Source: a virus (Duplodnaviria > Heunggongvirae > Uroviricota > Caudoviricetes). From it: DNA of 27,930 bases. Numbering within the stretch: the first letter of the stretch is position 1; each line of letters opens with the position of its first letter. Below are positions 6,122 through 8,636 of the stretch, piece after piece. A program made the position numbers and the translations under genes. The notes beneath the pieces are model-generated. The model worked only from the letters and a program-made list of their open reading frames with translations. It was not told the DNA's origin and did not search any database. The stretch lies in IMG/VR virus record IMGVR_UViG_2529292904_000023; one strand, 5' to 3'.

Positions 6122-6723
6122 TGGTTGCCTCCTTTGCGAATCTGTTCCGCCCATTCTTCTAGGGATTTCTCCGCATATTCACCGGACAGGCCATCAATCG
6201 GGTGTGGTTCATTAGCCAACTCTTCTTTCGCTGACAGAATCATGCGTGTAACGTCGAAAACTTCACGTAAAGACTTATTGATAAATCCGTGATTGAAAGC
6301 AGCAGCAAGACGGCTTGCGGTATAGTTAATCCCCTCGTTGCGTGCTTCCGCACGAATTTCAGCCAGGAAAGCATCGGTGGCTGGAGTTTCGCTGTGGTGC
6401 AGGGCATCGTTGATAATCATTGCAGCAACACCAGCCTGCCCTGCATCCGTGACCGACACATGCTCAAGAGTTACGGCCATTGCGTGTTTCAGCCCCGCAT
6501 TCTCCGCCGCCAGCGCCGAAAACTTCTCGTGTGCCAACTTAACAGCTGCTACAGCCTGCTTAATTGACTCAATCGCTTTCTGTTGGTCTTCGGACAGAGC
6601 CAAAATCTTGGCCTCCGCTTCAGCAAATTTACGCACCAGATATTCAGCATTTGTTTCATTCACTTTCAGATCTCGTGGTACACATTTCCCGCGAAGAAAC
6701 CCTTCCATTTCGAAAACATTCAT
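6118..6723 (-). CDS. Ea22-like C-terminal-domain paralog 3
   Basis: Shares the TDAFLAEIRA...RKGGNQ C-terminal region; start at ATG 6723 overlapping the HD gene stop (ATGA). Confidence 0.5.
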   Translation of the reverse strand: MNVFEMEGFLRGKCVPRDLKVNETNAEYLVRKFAEAEAKILALSEDQQKAIESIKQAVAAVKLAHEKFSALAAENAGLKHAMAVTLEHVSVTDAGQAGVAAMIINDALHHSETPATDAFLAEIRAEARNEGINYTASRLAAAFNHGFINKSLREVFDVTRMILSAKEELANEPHPIDGLSGEYAEKSLEEWAEQIRKGGNQ

Positions 6724-7256
6724 GCGCATGTGCGTAACTCCGATAACTCGTTAAAGCGCTCCATAAACATCCCGTAGGCATGGCTCGGAGCCAGTGGAAT
6801 AACTTTGAACATTTCTGTTGCCGGGATACCTTCCAGTACTGGCCAGAAAGAGCCATCATCAAGCCCGAGATCGCGGCGTTCGGTTGCCAGCATGATGAGA
6901 TCGGCATATTTCACAGGCGTGCTCATAACCGGGGGTAACCCGTATTTCTCACGGATTACGGCGTCTATTTTTTCTTCCATCCGTTTATAGTCAGGAAGAA
7001 GGCGTTTCAGTGGAGCGGGAATATCCTGGCAATACGCTTCTGTTGCATCATGCATTAACGCTTCAAAAGCAAATTCCTGCGGCACCAGCTGGCTGCAAAG
7101 AACCGCATGTTGGGCGACGCTGTAGAAGTGCGAAAGATGACCGGCAAAGCGACAGATATTTGAAAGGGAAACCGCGATATCGTTAATATCGATGTCGTCT
7201 TTATTTATCCTGTCATAATAAAAATGCTTCCCAGAAAAAGTTTTGATAAATGACAT
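6720..7256 (-). CDS. HD-domain phosphohydrolase, YfbR/YfdR-like 5'-deoxynucleotidase family
   Basis: HD signature ...RFAGH...ALMHDATEAY; 178 aa; start ATG 7256 with GGAGAA Shine-Dalgarno. Confidence 0.65.
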   Translation of the reverse strand: MSFIKTFSGKHFYYDRINKDDIDINDIAVSLSNICRFAGHLSHFYSVAQHAVLCSQLVPQEFAFEALMHDATEAYCQDIPAPLKRLLPDYKRMEEKIDAVIREKYGLPPVMSTPVKYADLIMLATERRDLGLDDGSFWPVLEGIPATEMFKVIPLAPSHAYGMFMERFNELSELRTCA

Positions 7257-7349
7257 TTTGTTCTCCACGTATATGCGCTGCACCGCGCTGAATTCTGGTA
7301 AAAAGAATCCCTCACCATCCGGCGATTATTGAGTAAATTACGTTTCCAT

Positions 7350-7371
7350 AAATGCCCCCGCAGGGGCATTT
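7350..7371. other. Perfect 9-bp-stem hairpin (AAATGCCCC-cgca-GGGGCATTT) in an intergenic region; not a canonical terminator
   Basis: Seen directly; no U-run on either strand. Confidence 0.5.
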
Positions 7372-7383
7372 GCAGTAATGAAA

Positions 7384-8208
7384 TCAGGCGGTGAAAGTAC
7401 CAATAAAGGTTTCTACTTTGCTGTCCTTGAATTTCTCAACAAGCAGATCACGAAATTCGTTAGCCATTTCTTCCTGCACCGCCTCCAGCTGAATAATGCG
7501 CAGAACCAGTACAGGACGATCGCCAGTGATAATGCTGAGGCGTAATTTAAACGGACGTTCTTTCAGACCTTCAAACGGAACGCATTTAAATTCAAATGCC
7601 ACTGGCATAATATCTTTGGTCTTCGCTTCGACAGACTCCATCAGGGAGCGTTTGCCGCTGAAGTCATTATCTTCAAAATCAGCGGTCTGGTTTGCTTCAA
7701 TCGTGATTTTACGGACCGCCGCAGCCGCTTTTGTTGCCTGAATAGCGTCACCATTAGCATCAAAGCCCACAAGGTAGTCGGCCCAGTCTTCAATCCATTC
7801 TGCCAGTGACTTCTGGGAGTTACGCTCGCCGTTAACAGACAACAGGGCAGAGAACGGTGCTGTCTTTTTCAGTTTGAGAGTGGCGGTGTTATCTGCGTGA
7901 CCTGGTTCATCAATAGTACCCAGGTTAAGCACACTGACTGCTCGCATATTATCGGCATCGATAAAGCAGCGGGTGCCTTCATCTGCAAGATCTTTAGAAT
8001 AACGGGTAAAGTCATCGATGCTGGCAGTGGAAAGCGCACCACGGAAACGGAAGCGATTTAAATTAAATTTTTCCAGATCATGAATGCGGAAATTCTCAGG
8101 CAATGCCACAGCATCGGCACCAATCTTACTGATAATTTCATTAACACCCTGAGCAGAAATAAGGGCATGGATTTGATTAATTGCGGTTGCGTCTAAGTTC
8201 TGAGACAT
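7384..8208 (-). CDS. Hypothetical phage early protein, YfdQ-like (DUF2303-like) by length and position
   Basis: 274-aa ORF in the leftward early operon; family assignment from recalled length and synteny only. Confidence 0.45.
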
Positions 8209-8273
8209 AATAAGTCCTCACTATATTAAGATATTCAGTGATGAGATAAATAATCAGTTAATTAAGAACGATA

Positions 8274-8636
8274 TTAATGACCTTCTGCGCGGAGTTTTCC
8301 GTCAGGTTCACCGGCAAGAGTCAGTAATTGTCCCTGGTCTTCCTGCAGAATAGTCAGGCGACCACCGCGATTGACATACATCGGCGTTTCGGTGGTGTCT
8401 TCTTCAGAAATTTTCCCGCGGTTAGTCGGGCGAACATATGAGAGTTTGTGTTTGATTTTCACACGGTTCTCATCAAACGGTTCGATTTCCAGGTTGAGCG
8501 AGACCTTACCTTTGGTTTTCGTGTTCATCACACCGGAAGCGACTTCACTGAGAACTGCGCCGATTTTGGTTTCAAATACGCCGCCGTCCAGCTCCCCGAT
8601 AAATGCCTGCACATCAGTACTGCGTTCGCTAGCCAT
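8274..8636 (-). CDS. Hypothetical phage early protein, YfdP-like, 120 aa
   Basis: Start reassigned to ATG 8636 (MASERSTDVQ...) with GAGGAG Shine-Dalgarno; the longer track ORF start is not supported. Confidence 0.45.
   Translation of the reverse strand: MASERSTDVQAFIGELDGGVFETKIGAVLSEVASGVMNTKTKGKVSLNLEIEPFDENRVKIKHKLSYVRPTNRGKISEEDTTETPMYVNRGGRLTILQEDQGQLLTLAGEPDGKLRAEGH

Follow-up and report, generated by a model that had tools for sequence, protein, structure and literature searches.

The minus strand at positions 6720-8636 of the window, the whole 27,930-nucleotide stretch of viral DNA analysed here (IMG/VR record IMGVR_UViG_2529292904_000023), is filled exactly by three genes, yfdP, yfdQ and yfdR. 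This block is part of the early-left (pL) operon of a lambdoid prophage of the SfV/mEp460/ST64B/LLS type and is orthologous to the corresponding genes of the cryptic prophage CPS-53 in E. coli K-12. The best overall explanation, which we favor with a little more confidence than doubt, is that YfdR from this early-left block binds DnaA and that the module serves host take-over. The trio is already known: its genes are named, and the HD protein has published biochemistry and a DnaA-binding phenotype. New here is the finding that yfdP-yfdQ forms an invariant core, to which yfdR is a facultative add-on.

An early-left operon orthologous to K-12 CPS-53

The first gene past the pL leader, yfdP (8274-8636, minus strand), encodes 120 aa. 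It is followed on the same strand by yfdQ (7384-8208; 274 aa, DUF2303 family) and by yfdR (6720-7256; 178 aa), encoding an HD-domain metal-dependent phosphohydrolase. Identity to the K-12 CPS-53 orthologues is 98% for YfdP, 99% for YfdQ and 97% for YfdR, confirming the YfdQ/YfdP-like identities proposed in the initial annotation. Annotated E. coli chromosomes match the DNA of the block at 100% identity, and the trio is present, at a coverage of at least 80%, in 2455 of 5426 complete E. coli genomes (~45%). SfV, mEp460, cdtI and Stx phages carry it as well.

Two intergenic gaps separate the genes, 65 bp between yfdP and yfdQ (8209-8273) and 127 bp between yfdQ and yfdR, and not one as initially described. 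The annotated ATG of yfdR at 7256 has a GGAG 8 nt upstream; a GTG-extended version of the frame would reach 7283, which differs from the annotated start, and was set aside. At its other end, the yfdR stop overlaps an ORF of 203 aa with a YfdS-like N-terminus (6118-6729, minus strand) in the motif ATGcgcATGA (6720-6729), by which this ORF is, judging from the arrangement of the codons, translationally coupled to yfdR. Comparable ATGA or GTGA overlaps occur at the yfdR stop in many loci. The ATGA coupling to neighboring genes that had been claimed for the HD gene thus holds for the downstream ORF and fails on the yfdQ side, where the 127-bp gap lies. Only over residues 1-45 does the downstream protein resemble K-12 YfdS (89% identity); its remainder is different, an Ea22-neighbor-like tail, and it matches phrog_614 and phrog_14548. 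No yfdT was identified within the window.

The K-12 CPS-53 (KpLE1) locus, yfdP-yfdQ-yfdR(-yfdS-yfdT), has the same gene order, the same 65-bp gap, a 127-bp gap with the same hairpin, and the same 10-bp overlap at the yfdR stop. It differs in that yfdR is followed by yfdS, with which the present downstream ORF has just its first 45 residues in common, and in that the region upstream of yfdP lacks the structured leader found in the present prophage. The present copy also adjoins an intact-looking immunity region, whereas the K-12 copy lies in the CPS-53 remnant. DNA identity is 96-98% to the early-left operons of SfV, mEp460, cdtI, ST64B and LLS, phages of the 'no Rec module' or LLS functional type, in which yfdPQR genes at the early-left position have been described (Zheng et al. 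2025, PMC12315714). The common layout comprises yfdP, yfdQ, the HD protein, Ea22-like genes, DUF551, a DnaQ-like exonuclease and a PrtN-type excisionase, with no N homologue, no Rec module and abundant Chi sites. The present prophage is a further member of this group, with mosaic differences in the Ea22 and YfdS-like genes and none that is essential.

Upstream of the operon, two operator-like palindromes, TTGC-N7-GCAA, lie 24 bp apart at 9265-9303 (no strand assigned), and a third copy of this repeat family, D1, is found at 10072-10086 beside a divergent cro-like gene. The palindromes at 9265-9303 likely mark the pL promoter-operator driving yfdP-yfdQ-yfdR. Next to them is a gene for a CI-like repressor with an XRE helix-turn-helix (9359-10051, minus strand). 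The identical reference region calls it 'XRE family transcriptional regulator', and its mEp460 counterpart is annotated 'peptidase S24-like' for the C-terminal region. Bound at the TTGC-N7-GCAA operators, this repressor would hold the operon off during lysogeny.

The yfdP-yfdQ pair and its flanking RNA structures

Species-level loci were taken from a scan of genome contigs with YfdQ; a viral-contig scan with the same protein gave only near-identical E. coli loci and was left out for the sake of diversity. In all 79 of 79 loci YfdP precedes YfdQ. Of 77 loci, 56 have YfdR behind YfdQ (adjacent in 51), and the other 21, which include all 8 non-enterobacterial loci, lack it there; among these 77, yfdR was not found outside Enterobacterales. 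Some species have unrelated genes inserted between yfdQ and yfdR. Because the pair occurs without yfdR in 21 of 77 loci, it must have a function independent of YfdR. The view of YfdQ and YfdP as partners of the HD protein is thereby reversed, with yfdR being the optional neighbor.

YfdQ matches PF10065 (DUF2303) over residues 7-272 with 309.7 bits, against a gathering score of 26.6 bits. At 50% identity the family falls into 1815 clusters, and throughout the best 150 listed of these its members are stand-alone proteins of ~270 aa. The only solved relative, PDB 9o7m ('YfdQ protein', E 1e-44), has 36 chains in the entry, which could mean that the homologue forms a large homo-oligomer. The AF2 model of YfdQ has a pLDDT of 74. 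YfdP is predicted to fold as a long N-terminal helix that leads into an antiparallel sheet of three strands. It belongs to phrog_204 (2e-49), and its homologues carry PF27127; YfdP itself gave no match in the set of Pfam profiles used. Neither the YfdP nor the YfdQ model matched any known fold. None of the four proteins scanned matched a PADLOC defense-protein model. The proteins are only mildly acidic (pI 5.0-5.4), leaving the idea of a DNA mimic unsupported.

The 3' end of yfdQ carries a stem-loop (7350-7371, minus strand) that begins 13 nt past the stop codon. Its perfect 9-bp core pairs the arms AAAUGCCCC and GGGGCAUUU, at 7350-7358 and 7363-7371, around a 4-nt loop and sits inside a longer, imperfect stem spanning 7337-7384. 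No other sizeable inverted repeat lies in 6720-8636, where by a rough estimate ~0.04 perfect 9-bp hairpins with loops of 3-8 nt would be expected by chance per 1.9 kb. The fold energy is -15 kcal/mol, and none of 200 shuffles folded equally well. The decisive evidence that the hairpin is real, as had been proposed, is its conservation: nearly every one of 80 species-level loci (~70 species) has a hairpin at the same site behind the yfdQ stop. An alignment of 34 sequences has 97.9% of its cells paired and double compensatory changes at 5 of its 10 pairs; the covariation score was reached by none of 500 shuffles. The hairpin is present with or without yfdR following and belongs to the yfdQ 3' end, not to yfdR.

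The 9-bp stem, with 5 G-C pairs, is as GC-rich as that of an intrinsic terminator. The corresponding U-tract, taken as at least 5 U in the 8 nt directly after the stem, is absent; the tail reads AUGGAAAC, with three U residues inside the stem, and a terminator scan did not list the site at 7350-7371. Probably the stem-loop closes the yfdP-yfdQ unit as a weak terminator, or else as a site where the mRNA 3' end is stabilized or processed. Over the yfdQ-yfdR spacer, Rfam gave a weak STnc100 hit (20 bits, E 0.15), which was dismissed as noise, as the spacer shows no homology to the true STnc100 copy at 18449-18657 of the window.

At the 5' end, the most interesting side observation of this analysis is a conserved, unannotated structured RNA leader of ~190 nt upstream of yfdP (8637-8830, minus strand). 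It contains a GC stem with a U-run behind it (CGCUCUUUUUACAA, boxA-like), then a ~100-nt hairpin at 8679-8778 and a small hairpin at 8655-8674 ahead of the ribosome-binding site. The leader, which contains inverted repeat I2, folds with -87.8 kcal/mol (z = -7.0). This architecture recurs upstream of yfdP in ~40 Enterobacterales species, with 6 of 9 consensus pairs covarying. Rfam returned no match for 8637-8830. The put RNA of phage HK022 was considered as a model for the leader; a blastn-short comparison with HK022 27500-30099 gave only chance matches of 9-17 nt, and put itself was not located in that segment, so the comparison speaks neither for nor against a put-like function.

YfdR, its catalytic residues and DnaA

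The H...HD metal-binding signature noted initially is present in YfdR and extends to the H...HD...D arrangement of metal ligands of the HD superfamily: H50, H69-D70 and D119, accompanied by E73 and D78. The ligands align with those of the closest solved structure, Agrobacterium Atu1052 (PDB 2gz4, E 1.7e-14), over a full-length alignment, and with those of the housekeeping 5'-deoxynucleotidase YfbR, a dCMP phosphohydrolase. Atu1052 is a structural-genomics target deposited under a name without function, and it adds a fold but no mechanism. With YfbR, YfdR shares the HDxxE-x4-D(L/I)PxPxK motif, its segment ALMHDATEAYCQDIPAPLK aligning to AMYHDASEVLTGDLPTPVK of YfbR. E73 and D78 correspond to the catalytic Glu and the substrate Asp of YfbR, reportedly E72 and D77 in that enzyme. 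All six residues are kept in 53-54 of 55 YfdR species variants, and the catalytic ones common to both proteins in 54 of 55, so phosphohydrolase activity is plausibly under selection.

Beyond this motif the two enzymes are very remote (hhalign probability of 43% over 36 columns). YfdR misses the curated cut-offs of the two YfbR models, with 24.3 bits for Pfam PF12917 (cut-off 25.9) and 19.9 bits for the NCBIfam equivalog NF003009 (cut-off 122); its true substrate may therefore not be a dNMP. RefSeq calls the protein '5'-deoxynucleotidase', and PHROG 318 (phrog_318 match at 9e-110) is named 'deoxyribonucleoside 5' monophosphate phosphatase'. Its sequence places YfdR among the HD-domain metal-dependent phosphohydrolases, in a phage subfamily separate from that of YfbR. 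Unlike YfbR, it is phage-borne and binds DnaA, and its nucleotide affinities, as cited from Zimmerman 2008, are far lower.

For K-12 YfdR, weak phosphatase activity on dNMPs has been published. The K-12 protein also binds DnaA domain I directly and in a Phe46-dependent manner, in competition with DiaA and DnaB, which use the same Phe46 patch (PMC4776307; the same results are summed up in the review PMC5448010). The YfdR of the present prophage is an orthologue, 97% identical over 178 of 178 residues and encoded in the same yfdP-yfdQ-yfdR order. Lambda P is likewise phage-encoded and impairs initiation in the host, and it binds DnaA domain III. DiaA, DnaB, B. subtilis SirA and lambda P, which act on the Phe46 patch of DnaA domain I or shut down initiation in the host, are likened to YfdR by mode of action and have no sequence or fold relationship to it. 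In K-12, multicopy yfdQ-yfdR together with yfdS or yfdT inhibits initiation at oriC, yfdP being dispensable; the block was seen from multicopy plasmids and, according to the authors, could be an overexpression artefact (PMC4776307). Deletion of yfdQRST had no effect, and pull-downs detected no binding of YfdQ, YfdS or YfdT to YfdR or DnaA (PMC4776307). The gene set required in K-12 may be incomplete here, since the downstream ORF is YfdS-like in 45 residues only and no yfdT accompanies it.

Together, these findings suggest the following course. Upon induction or infection the operon would be transcribed through its long structured leader. Oversupplied YfdR, YfdQ and the downstream YfdS/T-type protein would then block initiation at oriC, an effect shown by overexpression in K-12 and, by analogy, assumed for the present prophage and for natural expression levels. 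The module would probably serve host take-over by damping initiation on the host chromosome early in lytic growth, with the hydrolase activity of YfdR as a second contribution. The yfdP-yfdQ pair with its 3' stem-loop would be the core unit and yfdR a frequent, optional cassette placed behind it. As judged from the alignment of variants, the strict conservation of catalytic residues argues that hydrolysis matters, a feature that a pure DnaA-binding model leaves unexplained.

Alternative roles for the module

This conservation is also an argument for reading YfdR as chiefly a phosphatase of dNMPs or other nucleotides, which would reshape or clean the host dNMP/dNTP pool and bind DnaA incidentally. 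The HD motif in common with YfbR, the RefSeq and PHROG names, and the phosphatase activity in vitro attributed to Zimmerman 2008 (as cited in PMC4776307 and PMC10870394) all fit such a role. [quoted passage not shown] Deletion of yfdR in an engineered strain did not raise the CMP yield, leaving CMP accumulation unchanged (PMC10870394). YfdR also falls short of both YfbR family models, and the operon holds no other gene of nucleotide metabolism. Given these affinities, the unaffected CMP yield and the failed cut-offs, the nucleotide-pool manipulation put forward initially is not established, and we regard this role as unlikely, if the strongest of the rivals.

The remaining alternatives turn on yfdP-yfdQ. 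That the pair is invariant and yfdR optional, that it is framed by a 5' leader and a 3' hairpin of its own, both conserved, and that unrelated genes separate it from yfdR in several species would suit an accessory cassette (for anti-defense, superinfection exclusion or stress tolerance, for example) unrelated to its mosaic neighbor. In K-12, deletion of yfdQ abolished a phage-dependent demarcation line (bioRxiv 10.1101/413146), and higher sensitivity to H2O2 and MMS has been reported for a yfdQ deletion (PMC4776307). The absence of any PADLOC match and of any fold or family clue weighs on the other side, as does the joint requirement for yfdQ and yfdR in the initiation block (PMC4776307), which argues for some functional link; on balance, the accessory role seems rather improbable. 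The position of the genes invites a further comparison, as yfdP-yfdQ-yfdR occupy the canonical place of the Rec module (exo-bet-gam in lambda), in a prophage without a recognizable strand-annealing protein or RecBCD inhibitor. The pair, with or without yfdR, might then be an unrecognized module for recombination or other DNA transactions; an SSB or DnaQ-like exonuclease gene directly follows yfdQ in some distant loci, and the 36 chains of the YfdQ-homologue entry could reflect a large oligomer of the kind that annealing proteins form. In phage ArgO145, however, the cluster occurs together with a full Rec module, and a hidden recombinase was judged unlikely (Zheng, Casjens et al. 2025, PMC12315714). 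The 11 + 3 Chi sites in the window fit reliance on host RecBCD, no sequence or fold similarity was found to a known annealing protein, nuclease or Gam/Abc2, and the YfdP and YfdQ models are unlike Rad52, Redbeta, Erf, RecA and Gp2.5-type folds. Given this coexistence with full Rec modules and the missing fold similarity, a hidden recombination module was rejected as the main reading, and we consider it very improbable indeed.

The nucleotidase finding as first put forward matters little, and the genes are present in nearly half of the complete E. coli genomes. The leader and the intercistronic hairpin are concrete handles on early-operon read-through in lambdoid phages that lack N. We also see a slim chance that yfdP-yfdQ is a self-contained cassette, made of the covarying leader, two proteins with models unlike any known fold, and the 3' stem-loop. 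If so, YfdQ could be a new type of host-takeover or DNA-replication effector, and the leader might be an antitermination element of a new, N-independent kind or one controlled by RNase III. The yfdPQR module concerns many Shiga-toxin and Shigella serotype-converting prophages.

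The yfdP-yfdQ-yfdR block and its prophage setting

The three proteins encoded at 6720-8636 are 98%, 99% and 97% identical over their full lengths to YfdP, YfdQ and YfdR of CPS-53, a cryptic prophage of E. coli K-12. Annotated E. coli chromosomes contain the same DNA at 100% identity and label its products 'protein YfdP', 'YfdQ family protein' and 'yfdR: 5'-deoxynucleotidase'. The initial annotation, an HD protein with YfdP/YfdQ-like partners, had the names right, and on sequence identity the assignments are near certain. YfdQ belongs to DUF2303, which it matches over its full length (309.7 bits), and YfdR matches PHROG 318, 'deoxyribonucleoside 5' monophosphate phosphatase'. 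At a coverage of at least 80%, the 1917-bp block is found in 2455 of 5426 complete E. coli genomes, in up to seven places per genome, and it is also carried by phages SfV, mEp460, cdtI and Lys8385Vzw and by many Stx-converting phages. It is an already known and very common prophage module.

All three genes lie on the minus strand, yfdP at 8274-8636 (120 aa), yfdQ at 7384-8208 (274 aa) and yfdR at 6720-7256 (178 aa), each behind a good Shine-Dalgarno sequence. The yfdR start is ATG 7256, with GGAG 8 nt upstream and the same start in RefSeq; the ORF list extends to GTG 7283. Because gaps of 65 bp (yfdP/yfdQ) and 127 bp (yfdQ/yfdR) separate the genes, two earlier statements are only half right. 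The HD gene was described as ATGA-coupled to its neighbours, which holds downstream, where a minus-strand 203-aa ORF (6118-6729) overlaps the yfdR stop via ATGcgcATGA, but not on the yfdQ side. A hairpin was placed in the only intergenic gap; it does lie between yfdQ and yfdR, but the yfdP/yfdQ gap is a second one. Apart from these two small errors the observation is real, and its interpretation is partly supported and has been overtaken by published work. The likeness of the 203-aa ORF to YfdS is confined to residues 1-45 (89% there). Its middle (ETPATDAFLAEIRAEA) and C-terminus (...IRKGGNQ) resemble the adjoining Ea22-like protein (5441-6154, minus strand; ETPTTDAFLAEVRAQG, ...LRKGGNQ). Since the ORF mixes a YfdS N-terminus with an Ea22-like remainder, its mosaic sequence suggests recombination among these early genes.

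yfdP, yfdQ and yfdR are the first three genes of a leftward operon. Upstream of yfdP is a CI-like repressor gene (9359-10051, minus strand), with two operator-like TTGC-N7-GCAA palindromes between the two genes (9265-9303) and a third copy on the cro side (10072-10086). For this immunity type, the three copies (TTGCGCATTATGCAA, TTGCGAGATATGCAA and TTGCGCGTTAAGCAA) probably represent the operators oL and oR. Beyond yfdR come two Ea22-like genes, a 178-aa ORF without assignment (4199-4735), a DUF551 gene and, at the left operon end, an Rv2179c-like DnaQ-family 3'-5' exonuclease (2839-3414) and a PrtN-type excisionase (2521-2829), both on the minus strand and both also present there in mEp460. 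Strain F2_407_2_2 is 100% identical over 6000-9000, the stretch that the alignment covered, but its annotated left operon end has an IS3 element and neither of these two genes.

Family searches found no strand-annealing protein, Gam or Abc2 among the genes of the operon and prophage. Zheng, Casjens, Smith et al. (Genome Res 2025, PMC12315714) recognise an 'LLS functional type', to which this phage belongs; they describe LLS-type phages as lacking N and phages without a Rec module as rich in Chi sites. Chi (GCTGGTGG) occurs 14 times in 27.9 kb, 11 times on the plus strand (2851, 10642, 10988, 12856, 13666, 14918, 16055, 16326, 22100, 22502 and 22549) and three times on the minus strand (11264, 14022 and 16455), against a base-composition expectation of about 0.5 per strand. 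This count and bias fit the 'no Rec module, high Chi' lambdoid class of that study. Rfam matches at or above the gathering score elsewhere in the window are isrK (11310-11386) and C4 antisense RNA (11408-11495), both located in the Rha-like gene region, as well as three tRNAs (18088-18336), STnc100 (18449-18657; 175.6 bits) and, on the opposite strand, AgvB (18658-18717), which is exactly at its threshold.

A conserved core and an optional cassette

One genome per species was scanned with a YfdQ profile, giving 80 loci whose ORFs were examined by profile searches. YfdP is directly upstream of YfdQ in all 79 loci with upstream sequence, including non-enterobacterial loci of Marinobacter, Photobacterium, Hahella, Kistimonas and Pontibacterium (41-46% identity). 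In 56 of 77 loci YfdR is encoded after YfdQ, in 51 of them as the adjacent gene, and profile searches of ORFs found it at none of the eight non-enterobacterial loci. At loci that lack YfdR, different genes come next (SSB, DnaQ-like exonuclease, TraR-like zinc-finger protein or other). Therefore, yfdP-yfdQ forms the conserved core, with yfdR as an optional but often present cassette, an architecture that is a modest addition of this analysis. An SSB gene directly follows yfdQ in Proteus, Kistimonas and Hahella, and in five species, from Serratia, Symbiopectobacterium, Atlantibacter, Acerihabitans and Limnobaculum, the gene of a protein with SLPEGLSVGGSLDL repeats separates yfdQ from yfdR.

AlphaFold models of YfdQ (pLDDT 74) and YfdP (pLDDT 81.5; a predicted long helix, then a three-strand sheet) had no significant structural neighbour in fold libraries to April 2026, which lacked 9o7m; for these models, the absence of a match is also a modest addition. 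Sequence searches link YfdQ to one solved relative, PDB 9o7m ('YfdQ protein', 274 aa, E 1e-44), an entry with 36 chains. At 50% identity the family falls into about 1800 clusters; each of the 150 best-scoring members is a stand-alone protein of about 270 aa, so domain fusions offer no hint of function. A PADLOC defence-system search of the module's proteins gave no match.

Structured RNAs flanking the core

The perfect 9-bp hairpin 3' of yfdQ is as originally described (arms 7350-7358 and 7363-7371, 4-nt loop). Its folding energy of -15 kcal/mol beats 200 of 200 shuffles, and it sits inside a longer imperfect inverted repeat (7337-7384). Nearly all 80 loci have a stem-loop after the yfdQ stop, with or without yfdR next, and the stem sequences vary (AAATGCCCC, AATTGCCCTG, AAATCCCCGG, AAATACCCCA, GATGCCACT, AAGCGTCGT). 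Across 34 aligned enterobacterial sequences, 97.9% of cells hold standard pairs, whereas shuffles give 85% and sliding the partner gives at most 58%; five of ten pairs changed on both sides, and 0 of 500 shuffles reached the covariation score. Because pairing and covariation exceed the shuffles, the hairpin is a selected RNA structure, a DNA structure being less likely. It is part of the 3' end of the yfdP-yfdQ unit rather than of yfdR, and this covarying element is a further modest addition. There is no U-tract at the hairpin and a terminator scan makes no call there. It is probably a weak terminator, or a site between cistrons for 3' stabilisation or processing, in the manner of hairpins that separate cistrons in early phage mRNAs.

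The most interesting thing nearby lies outside the reported finding, in the yfdP 5' leader (8637-8830, minus strand; -87.8 kcal/mol, z = -7.0). It is composed of a GC stem, a U-run (CGCUCUUUUUACAA, boxA-like; CGCTCTTTTTACAA), a hairpin of about 100 nt (8679-8778), a small hairpin (8655-8674) and the ribosome-binding site. The arms of the large hairpin covary with compensatory changes, and the same architecture precedes yfdP in about 40 Enterobacterales species and in SfV, SfII, SfIV, mEp460, cdtI, ST64B and LLS. No Rfam family matched the leader, no phage record checked annotates it, and a comparison with HK022 region 27500-30099 revealed no similarity. N-independent, put-like antitermination has been speculated for such phages (Zheng et al., PMC12315714); because they lack N, the leader may be an antitermination or RNase III-type element.

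YfdR, DnaA and the role of the module

YfdR falls below the family cut-offs of YfbR, the housekeeping HD-domain 5'-deoxynucleotidase of E. coli (Pfam, 24.3 versus 25.9 bits; NCBIfam, 19.9 versus 122 bits), and by these scores is not a YfbR equivalog. The HD metal-binding signature noted initially is present (H50, H69, D70 and D119), and profile-sequence alignment places YfdR ALMHDATEAYCQDIPAPLK on YfbR AMYHDASEVLTGDLPTPVK, with the HD pair, the next Glu and the Asp all matching. The closest solved structure, the uncharacterised Atu1052 (2gz4; E 1.7e-14), has the H, HD and D positions in common. H50, H69, D70, E73, D78 and D119 are kept in 53-54 of 55 distinct YfdR sequences from different species, the sole exception being a degenerate Atlantibacter copy that lost the HD pair (AAE for HDA). 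With such retention, catalysis looks to be under selection, which a pure 'DnaA plug' model leaves unexplained.

The conserved active site favours the proposed nucleotide-pool manipulation. However, YfdR is described as having much lower nucleotide affinity than YfbR (Zimmerman et al., as cited in PMC4776307), and yfdR deletion in a CMP-production strain did not raise yield, unlike deletion of other phosphatases (PMC10870394). With affinity low and an in vivo effect absent, pool remodelling is unlikely to be the main role of YfdR. Noguchi and Katayama (Front Microbiol 2016, PMC4776307) found that yfdQ-yfdR-yfdS-yfdT in multicopy suppresses hda-185 over-initiation; suppression needs yfdQ, yfdR and either yfdS or yfdT, whereas yfdP is dispensable. 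This co-requirement argues against yfdP-yfdQ being an unrelated accessory cassette with yfdR a mere mosaic neighbour, a reading that the core-versus-accessory architecture favours and that we consider slightly less probable than pool remodelling. An as yet unrecognised recombination or DNA-transaction module is highly improbable, as published comparative data speak against it and fold similarity is lacking.

[quoted passage not shown] Deletion of the genes had no phenotype in normal growth, and the authors conceded that an overexpression artefact was possible. We lean towards damping of host initiation via DnaA, as part of host takeover, as the physiological role of the module. Derepression of pL would lead the operon to make YfdP, YfdQ and YfdR; YfdR would sit on the Phe46 patch of DnaA domain I and, with YfdQ and a YfdS-like protein, damp host initiation, with its hydrolase activity as a second, undefined contribution. 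Such a host-takeover function would be analogous in effect to that of lambda P.
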